Below, in pieces: positions 3,812-39,640 of a DNA stretch of 64,000 bases. Below the pieces are notes generated by a model. That model saw only the letters and a program-made list of their open reading frames with translations. It was not told the origin of the DNA and made no database searches. The stretch's first letter is position 1. Every line of letters begins with the position of its first letter. The DNA is from Patescibacteria group bacterium (GTDB taxonomy: Bacteria > Patescibacteriota > Patescibacteriia > UBA1558 > GWA2-36-10). Location: NCBI GenBank assembly GCA_041665545.1, contig JBAYIQ010000002.1, positions 66,369-130,368 on the forward strand, given 5' to 3'. The translations under genes and the position numbers were made by a program.

Positions 3812-3915
3812 CCCTAAATAAAAAACCACTGATCCCTTTGTCATCCCGCACTTGTTGCGGGATCTGACTAGATTCCTGCCTTCGCAGGAATGACGGTGTG
3901 AGTCAGTGGTTTTTT
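3812..3915. repeat. Composite nested palindromic element. Outer arms are aaaaaccactga / tcagtggttttt. Inner hairpins are gtcatcccgcacttgttgcgggat and attcctgccttcgcaggaatgac plus ggtgtgag. It probably acts as a bidirectional terminator and belongs to the dispersed hairpin-repeat family.
   Basis: Inverted repeats read directly in the sequence. The same aaaaaccactga arms and gtcattcccgc..gcgggaat cores recur at 33184-33335. Confidence 0.6.
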
Positions 3916-30972: not shown

Positions 30973-31335
30973 TTACAAAGATTTTTTCTTGCAATCCATG
31001 CAAGCCGTGGCTGAAGGAAATGCTTCCAAGCGCTTGGGGTCAATGGGTTTGGAGCAAACTTCACACAAGCCATAATTCCCCTCATCTATTTTTTTCAAGG
31101 CCTTGTTAACATTATATAGGGAAATCTCCAAGGTTTTTTCTAGAGACAAATTCTTTTCAAAGTCAGCTACTTCGGCCGCATTTTCATCTTCTTTGTCCCC
31201 GTAATCCTCAAACTTGGCGCTAAAATCATTGCCCTCTACTTGGACCGTGTCTACGTTTAATTCGCGCAATATTTCTTCGCGTCTTTTTTCTAATTCGCTT
31301 TTTCTGTTTTCCAAAAATTTAGTGTCAACTGTCAT
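30973..31335 (-). CDS. DksA/TraR-family C4-type zinc-finger protein
   Basis: Coiled-coil N-terminus and CEVCSKPI...ATACMDCKK zinc finger. 120 aa. Confidence 0.7.
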   Translation of the reverse strand: MTVDTKFLENRKSELEKRREEILRELNVDTVQVEGNDFSAKFEDYGDKEDENAAEVADFEKNLSLEKTLEISLYNVNKALKKIDEGNYGLCEVCSKPIDPKRLEAFPSATACMDCKKKSL

Positions 31336-32273
31336 GGTTTAGGTTTTAATTACCGTAAAATAATAACAAATATTAGGCAATTTGGCAAGAATGCCCTGCT
31401 TGGCTAAGATTTTTGTTCGAGTAAGGTTGAGCACAGCGAAACCGCATCGAGAACTATCTATTTAAACTTCTCGACTTCGCTCGAAGAAATAAGTAAATTT
31501 CAATTTTTTGACCCCATAACCTCGCCTTTATTTAGATTAGGATAAATAGGTCGCTCAGTACGGGGCAAGATGTGGCATTTTACAACAGCTTAAATAATAA
31601 AAAATACCGATATTTTAAAGAATGCTTGATAATTTTTTGACAAAACAAACAGGACGCATCCGAGCACCCCTAATAGCGTTAGCTTTGTGGGCCGTAAGTG
31701 CGCCCCGTAGCGTCTTCACGATAGCTTGTGACGCATTTGTTGCGTCTGTAAGTTCAATTGGCTTGAAACTTTAGCATATGTTGTTGTGAAAACGTCATTG
31801 TGATTCATTCCGACTCAGAATCATTGTAGAACTCCACCATTTAGTGGAAATATCTCGTTGCCTATCCGACAACAGGATTTTCCTTTTTGTATTTTGTTTT
31901 TGTTTTTGCTTTTTTCAAGCGTCGGTGGCTTGATAAATCAAAACAGTGAAGCTCTTAGAGCTAGACACTACTTTATCACAAGTAATGTGCAGTTCTAAAA
32001 TATTGTTCAAGGTACTTATTTATCAACAATATAAGTATATCATATTTTTACTTTTGTGTCAAAGCTAATACTTGGCTAAAATTAGCAAAAATAATTAGAT
32101 ATTTTTCTGATTGTTGACAACTTTGTCAAAACAATCCACAACTATCAACAAGTTATCCACACGCCTTCGCTCACCTAGTGAGCTTCGGCGATGCAGGCAC
32201 CTATTTTTGAGCAATTTATAGCCATTTTTTAAGTTCTAGGCCTGTGTAGAAGATAATAAAATAATTTTTGATA

Positions 32274-32302
32274 TTGACATAATCAATATATTATGATATA
32301 TT
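32274..32302 (+). promoter_or_regulatory. Sigma-70-type promoter TTGACA-17-TATATT driving the small-protein cassette
   Basis: ttgaca(32274-32279), 17-nt spacer, tatatt(32297-32302). Confidence 0.5.
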
Positions 32303-32320
32303 AGCTTGAAAACCGAAAAA

Positions 32321-32342
32321 TGATCTGTCGCTTGACAGATCA
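32321..32342 (+). promoter_or_regulatory. Perfect 22-bp palindrome TGATCTGTC-GCTT-GACAGATCA between the promoter and the first small ORF (operator-like)
   Basis: Exact 9-bp inverted arms with a 4-bp spacer, positioned about +12 to +34 relative to the predicted transcription start. Confidence 0.5.
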
Positions 32343-32381
32343 TCCCATTGGTCCCGCACCTCAAACCGTGGAGGAAAAGTC

Positions 32382-32558
32382 ATGAAATTGGAATTTTTTC
32401 GTGAGGACCTGCGTCCGGAGTATCGCGAAACTCCCACCAGCCAGGTCTCTTTCAAGCACCTCAACCAGCAAGCGCAGGAAGCCCTGCGTATCGTAAAGCA
32501 CGGCACCTTCTTCAACGAAAACAGGGACTCCTACAACGTGATTTACGTCCCGCGATAA
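32382..32558 (+). CDS. Small hypothetical protein (58 aa), first gene of the GC-rich cassette
   Basis: Strong SD ggaggaaaagtc-ATG. Translation MKLEFFREDLRPEYRETPTSQVSFKHLNQQAQEALRIVKHGTFFNENRDSYNVIYVPR. Below the 60-aa cutoff, so absent from the track. GC-rich. Confidence 0.5.
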   Translation: MKLEFFREDLRPEYRETPTSQVSFKHLNQQAQEALRIVKHGTFFNENRDSYNVIYVPR

Positions 32559-32620
32559 GCCCACCTACCCAGAGTCGGGCGCATCCGACTAACCCGTTTT
32601 TCATCAAGGGGGGTGAAATC

Positions 32621-32818
32621 ATGAAACAGGTCAAGATCTTCATGGCTGGTTCGTGTGACAAACACTTTGAAGCCGAAGTCAACAAATGGCTGTCAGCGCA
32701 ACCTCCGGATATCGAGATCATATCCCTTCACTCAGATTCCTCTGCAACAAGCGTAGGGGGCGGCACCGTTTTCGTTTACACCATCGTGATTCTCTACCAC
32801 ATCCAGAAGTTCTCCTGA
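32621..32818 (+). CDS. Small protein (65 aa), Cse60/YteV-like, paralog 1
   Basis: SD aaggggggtgaaatc-ATG. MKQVKIFMAGS...FEAEVNKWLSAQPPDIEIISLHS...TVFVYTIVILYH resembles the roughly 60-aa Cse60 family pattern (VKxF...E.EVN.(F/W)L...IIxI...hydrophobic...IxY). Assigned from memory of that family. Confidence 0.55.
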   Translation: MKQVKIFMAGSCDKHFEAEVNKWLSAQPPDIEIISLHSDSSATSVGGGTVFVYTIVILYHIQKFS

Positions 32819-32883
32819 ACCAACGTCGCCGTGGAGTCCGAGCGCATCAACTAACCTGTTTTTCACCAAAGGGAGGTGAAATT

Positions 32884-33090
32884 ATGGAGCATGTCAAAGT
32901 ATTCGTGGGCAATTCACTTACGGGTATCCAAATTATGATAGATGAAGTGAATGCGTGGCTTGCAGCAACGGAGAATAAAGATATCGAGGTGTTGCAACGT
33001 CATGTTTTCTGCCCTACCGAGGTCAATCATGATGGCACAAGCATCACCACTTGCATCATCGTGATCTTCTACCGCCACAGAGAGGTGTAG
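32884..33090 (+). CDS. Small protein (68 aa), Cse60/YteV-like, paralog 2
   Basis: SD aagggaggtgaaatt-ATG. MEHVKVFVGNS...IDEVNAWLAATENKDIEVLQRHV...TTCIIVIFYRH. Paralogous to the 32621 protein, with an almost identical 50-nt leader (cg.gcgcatc..actaacc.gtttttca.caa.gg.aggtgaaat). The track shows an upstream-extended 134-aa version from 32686. Confidence 0.55.
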   Translation: MEHVKVFVGNSLTGIQIMIDEVNAWLAATENKDIEVLQRHVFCPTEVNHDGTSITTCIIVIFYRHREV

Positions 33091-33183
33091 ACCCACCTTC
33101 CTGGAGCCAAACACAACGGCTCCCGCACGCAACCCATTCGATACACATCGAAGCGTCAGGGTTGCTTTCTTTTACGCAAAAAT

Positions 33184-33400
33184 AAAAACCACTGAATATG
33201 GTCATTGCGAGCCCCGCCGCGTCAGACGCGGCGGGGCGTGGCAATCTACAAGCGTGGATTGCTTCGCTACGCTCGCAATGACAAAAAACCACTGACTTTC
33301 TATGCCGTCATTCCCGCGAAAGCGGGAATCCACACGGATATTATAAATATTAAATTATCATGTCATCATCGGGTCAAGCCCGATGATGACATGATAGAAT
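33184..33400. repeat. Cluster of stacked palindromes after the cassette: aaaaaccactga direct repeats, tggtcattgcgagc/gctcgcaatgaca arms around cccgccgcgtcagacgcggcgggg, gtcattcccgcgaaagcgggaatccacac, and the perfect palindrome atcatgtcatcatcgggtcaagcccgatgatgacatgat
   Basis: All read directly. Shares arms with the 3812-3915 element and cores with the dispersed hairpin family. Confidence 0.6.
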
Positions 33401-33405
33401 CATCT

Positions 33406-34767
33406 TTAACGAAAACAAGCCCTAAAACCAATCTGCTGGTTATTTTCGTAAGAAAATACTGTCAAATTATTTATTTTTTTATCTAGCAAGGCTTTTTTTA
33501 TAGTTTCATCTTTAATTTTGGCACTATTTACTTGCACCAAATCAATGATTTGATAGTCCCCGGCCAACTGGCACTGGCCCAAATAACTCTGCATATCATA
33601 CTTACTGACCAAAGTGGCCTGAATAATTGATTCACTGTTTGACAAATAGTAGCTGGAGTCAATTTGCGCGCCATAAAGCTCGCCAAAATACCAATAATCC
33701 TTGGCCTGGTAGCTCAATTTTTCTATGACTGCTTCTTGACCGCTAATATATTCGGTGTAGACCGTGCCATCGGGCAGGCGATTTTTGGTTTCCTGCAAAT
33801 TAAGATTTGGTACCCAATCATTTATCCTTGACTGCCAATCCTCAGAACCCACCATCAGCCATTTATCATTGGCCAGATAAATATAATTATTTTTGAGAAT
33901 TTGCTCCTCTATTTTTTTGGCTGACAGTCGATAATATGGCAATTCGCCAAATAAGGGCTGTAAAATACTTTGGCTGACTACTGCTTGCCACTTATCTGGA
34001 GCATGTTCACCAAAACCAAATACCAAATCAGCGCCTAGTGGGAAATTGGCCTTGTTTGGCCAGACATCAGTACTACTAGCATTGATTACTTGTCTCAATT
34101 TCACCTGCCAAACATGAATATTTAATTGCCCGTCTTTTTGTTGGTAGATATTGGCGTAAATATTTGGCAAACCAGTATCTAGTTTCAGCCATTCGGTCAA
34201 AGCCGACAGAAACTCGGGCGCATTTTTTTTGGACCAAAAAATATTGATTCCTAAAGAGATGTTATTACTAGCCACTTCCATTCTTGACTGCTCATTATAG
34301 TGATTTGTCAGCCAAGGATCAGCACTGACTAACAAAATATCATTATCAATTAATAGATAACTATACTCTGGCCTATTTGTTGCCAGCCATTTGGTCACTT
34401 GCTTGGCATTATCTAGGCGTAGTAGAAAATTATCATCACTCAAAGATTCAGTTTTGAACCAAACTATTTCTTTGGCGCTAAAAAAACCATCCAACAGTAA
34501 CTTTTTTAGTTCCTCAATCTTAGTGGTCGGCTCGGTAGTGTCTATAATAGCCAATTTACTAATATCTAAACTTTTGTAAGTTGCCAGGTCAGACCAGTGA
34601 TAATAAAAAGTAGTATTTTGGGGCAAATACATCAGCAATGGCTGGCTGGATTTCTTAGGTGCTAGCAACATGACCGCTATTCCCAAAATCACCACACCCA
34701 AAAAAAGCCACCAAGCTTTACTTGGCAATAAAGTAAATTTTATGGTTGGCTTTTTTTCAGTGACCAC
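33406..34767 (-). CDS. Hypothetical membrane-anchored (N-terminal TM) extracytoplasmic protein
   Basis: 453-aa ORF. One N-terminal TM (WWLFLGVVILGIAVMLLA). Rich in W/Y/N. No known motif recognised. Confidence 0.45.
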   Translation of the reverse strand: MVTEKKPTIKFTLLPSKAWWLFLGVVILGIAVMLLAPKKSSQPLLMYLPQNTTFYYHWSDLATYKSLDISKLAIIDTTEPTTKIEELKKLLLDGFFSAKEIVWFKTESLSDDNFLLRLDNAKQVTKWLATNRPEYSYLLIDNDILLVSADPWLTNHYNEQSRMEVASNNISLGINIFWSKKNAPEFLSALTEWLKLDTGLPNIYANIYQQKDGQLNIHVWQVKLRQVINASSTDVWPNKANFPLGADLVFGFGEHAPDKWQAVVSQSILQPLFGELPYYRLSAKKIEEQILKNNYIYLANDKWLMVGSEDWQSRINDWVPNLNLQETKNRLPDGTVYTEYISGQEAVIEKLSYQAKDYWYFGELYGAQIDSSYYLSNSESIIQATLVSKYDMQSYLGQCQLAGDYQIIDLVQVNSAKIKDETIKKALLDKKINNLTVFSYENNQQIGFRACFR

Positions 34768-37670: not shown

Positions 37671-37810
37671 GGCGCACCAGAATGTCATCCCGGACTCCCG
37701 CCCGACACGCCTGACCGGCGGTCATGGCGGGCGGGTGATCCGGGATCTACCATTGATTTGCCATTGGTATGATTATGGTAGATTCCCGCCTTCGCGGGAA
37801 TGACAGCTGA
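37671..37810. repeat. Left terminal inverted repeat of the element (composite of hairpins gtcatcccggac..gatccgggat, ctaccat..atggtag, attcccgccttcgcgggaat)
   Basis: See the mobile-element entry. Followed by the 22-nt motif gcgctagtttcttgaactcgcc, which recurs at 20636. Confidence 0.6.
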
Positions 37811-38656: not shown

Positions 38657-39475
38657 ATGGACAAAACCTCGCTAAACAAATATCGACTATATCTAAAAAG
38701 TAAGGAGCTAAAAAATAGCACTGTCAAAAATTATTGCTGGCATGTACAACAGTTTTTACTATGGAGTGAAAATAAATCCGCCAGAGGCGGACCCGCCTTT
38801 GGCGGGAAAATTACTACCCTTATTTTAAAAAAATATAATGATTTTTTGCTAGCTAAACAAAAAAATATTGGTAGCATTAATCTGCGTTTTGTTATTCTCA
38901 ACAATTATTTAAGTTTTTTAAATATAAAATATTCCTTTACCCTACTTTCCCAAGAAAAAAATAGATTAAAAGCCATGGATCCAGTGCAACTGCAAAACTT
39001 TTTGGATCAGCCCTTGAAGAAAAAAAATTTATTGGGCTTCCGTGACAAGGCCTTGCTGGAAATATTGTATGTCAGTGGCTTGAAGGTCAGTGATTTGGTG
39101 AATATAAAAAAAGAACAAGTGGATTTTTTGAGCCGTGAGATTATTCTTAAAAATAAACACCTAAATCTACCACCTTATACTCTGCACTATTTAGAAAAAT
39201 ACTTAAATTTTCGCCGTGACAAAAATCCTTATTTATTTATCAACTTTGATCGCAGTAAAAAAGCGGGTGATACTCATTTGTCAGTCCGCTCTGTAGAACG
39301 CCTCATTGAAAAATACGCTTATGTCTTACGTCCACGGCTAAAAGTGACTCCCCAAATCTTACGCAACACCTTGGCTTACCAGCTCAAAATGCAAGGCACT
39401 AAAAATTTAGGAATTAAAGAGGCACTACATTTTAAAACAAAGGTAGCGGCTACTAATTATTTTAATAGATTATAA
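38657..39475 (+). CDS. Tyrosine recombinase / phage-integrase-family protein (XerC/XerD-like, possibly degenerate active site)
   Basis: N-terminal SAM-like core-binding domain (KNYCWHVQQFLLW...). C-terminal catalytic-domain pattern GLKVSDLVNIK...(R)...LRNTLAYQLKMQG..ALHF...ATNYF, compared with box II HxLRHTFAT..LL..G.DL..IQ.LLGH....TT.IYTHV. Here the His of HxxR is not conserved. A 30-nt GC hairpin of the dispersed family (ggcggacccgcctttggcgggaaa) is embedded in-frame at codons around SARGGPAFGGKIT. Confidence 0.6.
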   Translation: MDKTSLNKYRLYLKSKELKNSTVKNYCWHVQQFLLWSENKSARGGPAFGGKITTLILKKYNDFLLAKQKNIGSINLRFVILNNYLSFLNIKYSFTLLSQEKNRLKAMDPVQLQNFLDQPLKKKNLLGFRDKALLEILYVSGLKVSDLVNIKKEQVDFLSREIILKNKHLNLPPYTLHYLEKYLNFRRDKNPYLFINFDRSKKAGDTHLSVRSVERLIEKYAYVLRPRLKVTPQILRNTLAYQLKMQGTKNLGIKEALHFKTKVAATNYFNRL

Positions 39476-39489
39476 AAAATCGTTCCCTT

Positions 39490-39640
39490 TATCCTGTCAT
39501 TCCCGCGAAAGCGGGAATCTACCATTGTCACACCAATGGCAAATTAATGGTAGATCCCGGATCTCCTCGAGTCTGAGCGACGAGGTCGCTAGACCTCGGA
39601 GTCGATGACAAGTCCGGGATGACATTACTGGGAGCGATTT
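39490..39640. repeat. Right terminal inverted repeat of the element
   Basis: cctgtcattcccgcgaaagcgggaatctaccattgtcacaccaatggcaaattaatggtagatcccggatc ... agtccgggatgacatt. Reverse complement matches the left TIR. Confidence 0.6.

Follow-up and report, generated by a model that had tools for sequence, protein, structure and literature searches.

In T4-type phages, the PeSL cassettes are conserved regulatory motifs that lie between small ORFan genes of a hyperplastic region, and the genes between the motifs are replaced among close relatives, a replacement ascribed to recombination of one motif with another (Arbiol et al. 2010, PMC2839356; PMC4122927). By analogy, and not as a matter of membership, this modular shuffling is the closest precedent for the junction-mediated exchange that might operate in the locus considered here, a 1.15-kb insert in the chromosome of a Patescibacteria group bacterium. 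The insert occupies positions 32257–33405 (plus strand; extent judged against island-free relatives) of a 64,000-nucleotide stretch of contig JBAYIQ010000002.1, the whole of which is called the window, and contains a promoter, three tiny genes and a terminator.

The likeness to the PeSL arrangement lies in three mosaic arrays with junctions that are 73–87% identical and with intervening genes that are replaced between close relatives. PeSLs are units of a promoter and a terminator in phage genomes, whereas in the insert a 3' hairpin and a translation leader together make up the repeated unit, within one chromosomal operon, and no phage link is found here in phage records, plasmids or viral contigs.

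The closest described protein is Cse60 (YteV), renamed CprV in a 2026 study, the first functional one. CprV is an acidic, Alba-like protein (TM-score of 0.65 against Alba1) that multimerises through V4, V6 and N20, and its acidic isoelectric point (pI) was argued to indicate that it does not bind nucleic acids. In B. subtilis it is recruited by the FtsK-family translocase SpoIIIE, and it is reported mainly from Bacillales, where it is controlled by sigma-E (PMC13627676).

The insert is a swappable accessory cassette array and not a regulator-effector or toxin-antitoxin module. Three lineages carry mosaic arrays, in which the cassettes are joined by one conserved junction. The full reading, given a probability of about 0.6, is that of an accessory operon that varies between strains, was acquired laterally and consists of small-gene cassettes arranged in an array. 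Bacteria of the Candidate Phyla Radiation (CPR)/Patescibacteria have tiny genomes, and little is known of how they gain and express accessory genes; here a fixed hot spot holds cassettes that are swapped between strains, and the cassettes bring in a promoter and Shine-Dalgarno signals of their own, such signals being little used in the rest of the genome.

Cassette arrays at a chromosomal hot spot

The insertion spot is bordered on one side by the promoter region of a gene for a conserved structured RNA, and on the other by the 3' end of a convergent 453-amino-acid gene adjoining pnp. A scan with PNPase yielded 80 syntenic or related loci (designated by L and a number), among which the content of this spot differs. 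It is empty in L020 and L050 (PNPase identity 85–89%), where no more than ~20 nt separate a conserved ...GTGTAGAAGATAA motif from the stop codon of the 453-amino-acid gene, while in the window 1.15 kb intervenes. In L017 (PNPase 97%) the spot holds palindromic repeats only, and in L019 (PNPase 86%) another insert, ~300 nt from promoter to terminator, in which no open reading frame (ORF) is convincing. The window carries genes for proteins of 58, 65 and 68 residues. L007, L008 and L009 (PNPase 97%), on contigs syntenic with the window, carry a homolog of the 58-residue protein, a 59-residue paralog and an unrelated protein of 96 residues; L010 and L018 (PNPase 96%) carry an unrelated 70-residue membrane protein with two helices, a counterpart of the 65-residue protein and a counterpart of the 96-residue one. 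L018 is a locus of a GTDB metagenome-assembled genome (MAG), with the same island as on L010.

Slots 1 and 3 are thus held by unrelated genes in sister strains, which indicates that the genes behave as independent cassettes, and the empty or differently filled site in relatives, together with the mosaic arrays, identifies the block as an insertion at a hot spot with slots filled independently. The first-pass annotation had proposed a regulator with two effectors, or an addiction or defence module; the independent replacement of slots and the lack of any family match speak against both. No cassette gene or member of the gene 2/3 family is present in the remaining syntenic loci or elsewhere in the window. 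The same island in the same flanks is found in two JGI samples, two Logan runs and one GTDB MAG, and its recurrence in those flanks in independent assemblies excludes an assembly chimera.

The cassettes are joined by an element that, in an alignment of all junctions, consists of two parts. The 3' part, directly past each stop codon, reads ..CCCACCT.. and then GGAGYC-N9-GRCU(aa)CC, usually a hairpin, with a stem that covaries (AGUC/GACU in some copies, AGCC/GGCU in others). The 5' part belongs to the next gene and reads ACTAACC-N-GTTTTTC(A/G)(C/T)C-AAAGGGA-GGTGAAAAtcATG, forming a leader of ~45 nt with the pattern ACTAACC-N-GTTTTTC...AAAGGGAGGTGAAAAtcATG. Junction 1 (32559–32620, plus strand) contains the 3' hairpin AGTCGG/CCGACT (32572–32590) followed by the leader ACTAACCcGTTTTTC, where the inverted repeat TTTCATC/GGTGAAA (32599–32618) brackets the ribosome site. 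Junction 2 (32819–32883, plus strand) has the same leader, with the inverted repeat TTTCACC/GGTGAAA (32861–32881) around GGGAGG. Past gene 3, only the 3' part is present, as a half-junction hairpin GGAGCC-N9-GGCTCC of 6 bp lacking the leader half (33103–33123, plus strand), and it is followed by the terminator.

Five full leaders are 73–87% identical whichever ORF comes next; in junction 1 of L007 the middle of the leader is deleted. The leaders of genes 2 and 3 are 82% identical (45/55), in contrast to 46% for the coding DNA of the two genes (42% at third positions), which bears out the earlier proposal that the duplicated unit is leader plus ORF. That proposal also placed each Shine-Dalgarno sequence in a short hairpin. 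The inverted repeats are indeed there, but unusual folding is not: folding energies of the leaders in the window are ordinary (z-scores of -0.3 to +1.2) and the 4-bp cctc/gagg pair at gene 1 is not part of the predicted fold. A role of the leaders in ribosome-site sequestration or as a thermosensor was rejected on account of these ordinary energies. The variants of the ribosome-site stem (CACC, CAUC and CGCC) all pair with GGUG via wobble, and are compatible with an RNA hairpin, which is not proof of one.

The exact leader pattern has no match in genome contigs or in viral contigs. Its five matches in metagenome contigs are all due to chance (three inside the pth coding sequence on the other strand, two at unrelated ribosome sites), and the leader was therefore rejected as a widespread element. 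On the unrelated 56%-GC contig L011, a 3' hairpin GGAGCC-GAGCACAC-CGGCT (2572–2610) follows a distant member of the gene 2/3 family, and its motif (GGAGCCGAGCACACCGGCT) is identical to the island 3' hairpin at 16 of 19 positions.

The leader may be a portable translation-initiation module kept by selection, and may serve in addition as a homology patch for recombinational exchange of cassettes between strains. It is quite unlikely, at the present state, that the junction element, with its 3' hairpin and portable ribosome-site leader, is the working part of an undescribed CPR cassette-exchange system that operates without a dedicated integrase. Such a system, if real, would act at a fixed hot spot of the chromosome and shuffle small genes that are strongly expressed.

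The three ORFs of 58, 65 and 68 amino acids reported earlier are all confirmed. Gene 1 (32382–32558, plus strand) encodes a basic 58-residue protein (pI 8.1) of no known family. Its only homolog, P0004 (76% identity), is encoded in the syntenic islands of L007, L008 and L009, and its ratio of non-synonymous to synonymous substitution rates (dN/dS) is 0.50. Gene 2 (32621–32818, plus strand) encodes a Cse60/CprV-like small protein of 65 residues (pI 6.2) with an ortholog, P0006 (58% identity), in L010/L018. Gene 3 (32884–33090, plus strand) encodes a 68-residue protein (pI 5.4), which by its similarity to gene 2 is a divergent paralog of it. The paralogy suggested in the first-pass annotation is real but distant: BLASTP gives 27% identity with an E-value of 8e-7, and the local alignment score of 63 lies far above the shuffled mean of 21.7 (standard deviation 4.0), with none of 2000 shuffles reaching it. 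Gene 1 shows no relation to genes 2 and 3. A word-indexed search with the three genes finds no homologs outside the clade.

In the orthologous cassettes, the pooled proportion of non-synonymous differences (pN, 0.16) is below that of synonymous ones (pS, 0.28; Fisher p 0.001), and no frameshifts or stops separate orthologs across synonymous divergence (dS) of 0.25–0.58. This indicates that the cassette genes are real but fast-evolving, with dN/dS of ~0.5 as compared with 0.02–0.07 in dksA, the 453-amino-acid gene and pnp. It had been expected that annotation would miss the module, yet all three ORFs are called by JGI (on the 161.6-kb metagenome contig Ga0376277_0000727) and tagged by NCBI (WCV69_01960/65/70).

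The block is GC-rich, at 51% (47–53% in 300-nt windows) against 40% for the window as a whole; the abrupt rise noted earlier is thus present, at a value lower than the ~55% then given. GC at third codon positions (GC3) is 0.70, 0.62 and 0.57 for genes 1, 2 and 3, against ~0.40–0.44 in the flanking genes. As described before, a strong Shine-Dalgarno sequence of the GGAGG type precedes each ORF, namely GGAGG for gene 1, GGGGGGTGA for gene 2 and GGGAGGTGA for gene 3, located 5–8 nt ahead of the ATG; a strict motif scan reports GGAGG at genes 1 and 3, and gene 2 with its variant. GGAGG is found upstream of none of the 57 long ORFs of the window and none of 19 called host genes, which suggests that initiation in this organism is independent of Shine-Dalgarno pairing. 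Host upstream regions are A/T-rich, and Shine-Dalgarno sequences are almost absent from host genes. The GC content, GC3 and GGAGG-type sites together suggest an island imported with its own signals, in agreement with the earlier description of an accessory module that is self-contained and of foreign composition; both promoter and terminator belong to the island itself. A phage or plasmid origin of the island was considered and rejected: blastn against 50,697 phage records and 72,556 plasmids gives no match, and gene 1 and the 96-residue protein, used as queries in translated scans of viral contigs, give nothing usable.

The predicted promoter of the block (32274–32302, plus strand) is of the sigma-70 type with a TG extension, with TTGACA at 32274–32279, a 17-nt spacer and TATATT at 32297–32302. 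It had already been recognized in the first-pass annotation, is near-consensus (11/12 positions) and shares the top score within 31300–33500; it is conserved in L007 and L010/L018 and missing from island-free relatives. Transcription would start at ~32309. An intrinsic terminator, GCAACCC...GGGTTGC followed by TTTCTTTT, lies at 33129–33173 on the plus strand (fold z-score -3.7; none of 200 shuffles folds as well). The three genes would accordingly be transcribed as one tricistronic mRNA from ~32309 to ~33173.

A perfect 22-bp palindrome, TGATCTGTC-GCTT-GACAGATCA, follows the promoter at 32321–32342 (plus strand). It is present as first described and is unique in the window even with three mismatches (0/100 shuffles matched), but its reading as an operator does not hold up. 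In L010/L018 the outer TGAT...ATCA is retained and the inner arms are altered on both sides (TGATTCGGCC-GGTT-GGCGGATCA), and in L007 another hairpin, a weak one, takes the place of the region; gene 1 thus occurs without the palindrome in L007, and a palindrome without gene 1 in L010. This lack of co-inheritance argues against a sequence-specific operator bound by gene 1 and favours a role at the RNA level. The idea of gene 1 as a DNA-binding regulator was rejected on the same ground and for its poor AlphaFold2 model, which shows one helix only, at low confidence (predicted local distance difference test, pLDDT, 53). An A-run followed by a hairpin is the architecture common to all three versions. 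In the window the palindrome folds as a 10-bp hairpin in the 5' untranslated region (z-score -2.2), on the plus strand 10 nt from the predicted 5' end, while on the minus strand it scores as an intrinsic terminator. It can be read either as a 5' stem-loop that would stabilise the mRNA, or as a minus-strand antisense terminator that would shield the neighbouring RNA gene.

The insert of L019 at the same hot spot (1850–2200, reverse complement) has a promoter-like TTGACC-17-TAATAT, ~220 nt of 50–55% GC and, with a T-run behind it, the strong terminator GGGGACATGTGTC..GACATGTGTCCCC. With no convincing ORF and no Rfam match, it may be a small RNA or a micro-ORF.

The gene 2/3 family and Cse60/CprV

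An exhaustive search with a hidden Markov model profile of genes 2 and 3 finds 54 proteins at E<=1e-3, including proteins of other organisms. All but one are small (55–96 residues), the exception, of 1291 residues, matching only weakly and locally. The family consensus is MEkVKIFt....F..LE.EVN.WL..N..IEIiSRhv..saGvN..G..FVNCTIVIFY, in which W23 is invariant and F7, N21, L24 and Y59 are nearly so. The six family members examined in their context are single genes adjoining housekeeping genes, on contigs of 43–56% GC, and two of the six are GC-rich relative to their own contig. On the low-GC contigs L098 and L099, the family gene is 10–13 points richer in GC and has its own promoter and terminator. 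Together with the hairpin of L011, these GC-rich genes with their own signals hint that the family travels as a small self-contained unit.

The assignment of genes 2 and 3 to the Cse60/YteV family in the first-pass annotation stands as the best Pfam lead, but not as Pfam membership. Neither protein matches Spore_Cse60 (PF10957) at E<=10. Cse60 is the Pfam family matched by most family members, though by only four of the 54 (best E-value 0.009), and the family consensus aligns with it end to end (1–62 to 1–59 of 60) at 13.6 bits and an E-value of 0.07, under the gathering cut-off of 20.7 bits. Scores below the cut-off indicate at most a remote homology to Cse60.

The AlphaFold2 model of gene 2 is of high confidence (pLDDT 94) and predicts a β-α-β-β arrangement, with strands at residues 2–9, 31–45 and 48–61 and a helix at 14–26. 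Among its top Foldseek matches are Alba, Ssh10b and Mth10b, with TM-scores of 0.49–0.61 and with E-values that alone are not significant; no homologs of solved structure are found by sequence. The ~60-residue single domain and the Alba-like fold of the gene 2 model are shared with Cse60/CprV, as is the acidic character, given the pI of genes 2 and 3. The consensus residues V4 and I/V6 are kept in both genes and, with N21, match V4, V6 and N20 of CprV in position only. Unlike Cse60/CprV, genes 2 and 3 score below the Pfam cut-off, their host is a non-sporulating CPR bacterium, and the gene is duplicated in a mobile array behind a sigma-70-type promoter rather than one for sigma-E.

Genes 2 and 3 are probably remote relatives of Cse60/CprV that would act as small oligomers binding another protein. 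This role follows that of B. subtilis CprV, with its V4/V6/N20 multimerisation and its recruitment by SpoIIIE; by this analogy, the two acidic Cse60-like proteins would bind another protein rather than nucleic acid. Should the junction element, against the odds, be part of the undescribed exchange system considered above, Cse60/CprV-like proteins would be a mobile class of small oligomeric modulators, possibly of FtsK/SpoIIIE-type translocases, far beyond sporulating Firmicutes. The Cse60/CprV-like fold is extended here to non-sporulating bacteria, which gives a wider comparative context to a protein whose function has only just begun to be studied.

Alternative explanations

Several other explanations of the block were weighed. 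An anti-phage defence, anti-defence or host-interaction island, where small inhibitors or decoys, evolving fast under diversifying selection, form an arms-race array, would account for the hot-spot site, the turnover of content between strains, the strong expression signals on the genes and the elevated dN/dS relative to the flanks. CPR bacteria live attached to hosts, and this lifestyle also fits a host-interaction island. Such an island is nevertheless unlikely, as dN/dS stays below 1, the other gene 2/3 family members are single genes adjoining housekeeping genes, and matches are absent from PADLOC 2.0 (none at E<=10 for the six cassette proteins) as well as from viral contigs, phage records and plasmids. 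The block also shares with type II toxin-antitoxin systems a compact, strain-variable operon of very small genes and a perfect palindrome just past the promoter, and the two-helix membrane protein in slot 1 of L010 resembles small membrane toxins. Gene 1 would here be a small DNA-binding antitoxin or repressor acting on a palindromic operator, and genes 2 and 3 the effectors of an addiction micro-operon. This is very unlikely. The six cassette proteins have no match among toxin, antitoxin or defence families: no curated cut-off is reached in Pfam or NCBIfam, where matches are sub-threshold only, and PHROGs gives weak partial matches, the best with an E-value of 0.007 over 24 residues of gene 3. 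Moreover, the palindrome is neither conserved in sequence nor co-inherited with gene 1, the gene 1 model is a single low-confidence helix, and the partners are exchanged one without the other, as members of an obligate pair could not be.

The resemblance to integron cassettes concerns the promoterless small ORFs behind a single promoter, the imperfect palindrome at each junction and the variation between strains. A site-specific recombinase acting on the junction hairpins would insert and excise cassettes that are expressed from the one upstream promoter; the half-site left past the last cassette suggests a crossover inside the element, and a tyrosine recombinase gene is located 5.6 kb away (38657–39475). 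This recombinase, however, is a 272-residue Xer-like protein whose gene keeps its position in relatives whether or not they carry the island, and its synteny in the island-free L020 and L017 indicates that it is not island-specific. The junction GGAGYC..GACTAACCnGTTTTTC, read directly, fits neither the RYYYAAC nor the GTTRRRY core of attC, neither an IntI integrase nor an attI-like site is identified here, the arrays are only three cassettes long, and the ribosome site of each following gene lies within the junction. An integron-like array is thus very doubtful indeed. Extremely improbable is the view that the ORFs are untranslated and that the block is a non-coding or decaying foreign remnant with functionless repeats for leaders. 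It would agree with the high dN/dS and with the restriction of homologs to the clade in the word-indexed search, but non-synonymous change is significantly below synonymous (p 0.001), the orthologs are intact across the observed dS, a ribosome site stands at the right distance from every ORF, and genes 2 and 3 have matches in other organisms within a family of 54 proteins, with a confident model for gene 2.

A number of points weigh against the reading of the block as a laterally acquired cassette array with Cse60-like genes. The link to Cse60 lies below the Pfam threshold, and CprV acts in sporulation, a process absent from CPR bacteria. For gene 1 there are neither homologs beyond the clade nor a confident model. 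Changes in the ribosome-site hairpin are all single and compatible with wobble, with no double compensation, and the leader folds are thermodynamically ordinary; the leaders could be kept purely for translation, and their role in recombination is drawn from three array variants only. The promoter, the operon and the translation of its genes are all predicted from sequence.

Flanking genes, structured RNA and dispersed repeats

To the left, the block is flanked by minus-strand housekeeping genes (dksA-like, lspA, TspO and comM), and to the right by the 453-amino-acid lineage-specific gene, pnp and rpsO, also on the minus strand. The Xer-like recombinase gene is at the same position in all relatives examined and is flanked by the same palindromic repeats as are found in the block.

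The ~1 kb of AT-rich DNA upstream of the block is ORF-free, as stated in the first-pass annotation, but not empty. It contains a conserved gene for a structured RNA of ~390 nt (31641–32028, minus strand), recognized by covariation and synteny, with a promoter TTGACA-17-TATACT with a TG extension at 32062–32034 (minus strand) and a terminator at 31670–31651 (minus strand); dksA has a separate promoter beyond the RNA gene. A DNA profile finds the element at the syntenic place in 22 loci of other assemblies, including distant Parcubacteria and Komeilibacteria MAGs, and its identity remains 97% in genomes with a dS of 0.44–0.58 in the flanking genes. In a set of 15 diverse copies, compensatory changes occur at 35 of 57 predicted pairs, pairing holds in 95.8% of cells as opposed to 38–46% when partners are slid, and none of 500 shuffles reaches the observed covariation score. 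A loop-loop pseudoknot of C(C/U)GAC with GUC(G/A)G is paired in all 15 copies, with two covarying positions, and the RNA carries a conserved AAAACAAAAACAAAA linker. It has no match in Rfam 15 and is not identified as tmRNA by ARAGORN. The RNA probably represents an undescribed structured class, for which it is a strong candidate.

Upstream of the RNA promoter, the segment 32063–32160 contains TTGTTGACAACTTTGTCAA and DnaA-box-like motifs (ATCCACAACTATCAACAAGTTATCCACA), and its sequence is conserved down to relatives with ~70% PNPase identity. Only two boxes of the DnaA-box-like TTATCCACA type are present in the spacer, and the window-wide background of such motifs is near chance. A replication origin was rejected for the AT-rich spacer, given only two boxes, no inflection of GC skew and no switch of gene strand; the absence of a skew inflection suggests that the segment is probably regulatory.

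Three palindromic elements of dispersed repeat families (33184–33400, no strand assigned) lie inside the insert and outside its transcription unit. They were first taken as a stack of palindromes that closes the module; they are in fact generic dispersed repeats, placed downstream of the real terminator. The AAAAACCACTGA of the stack recurs at 3821 and 3903, the TCCCGCGAAAGCGGGA at 37784 and 39501, and the same elements in the opposite orientation are those that fill the site of L017. Composite palindromic elements are found at 33184–33400, 3815–3915, 37720–37810 and 39495–39560, with AAAAACCACTGA terminal inverted repeats that enclose GC-rich hairpins, for example GTCATTCCCGCGAAAGCGGGAATCC and GTCATTGCGAGC...GCTCGCAATGAC. 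They look like bidirectional terminators or repeats resembling miniature inverted-repeat transposable elements (MITEs). For 33184–33400 alone, the likeness to repetitive extragenic palindromic (REP) or MITE elements consists of short GC-rich hairpins, some with inverted AAAAACCACTGA ends, a dispersed intergenic location in either orientation and a bidirectional terminator-like character, and it is based on these features.

Relative to L007, the window carries a 245-bp insertion at 31392–31635, with the RNA terminator on one side and the dksA promoter on the other. The insertion, which L018 shares in part, holds GC-rich hairpin-forming segments.

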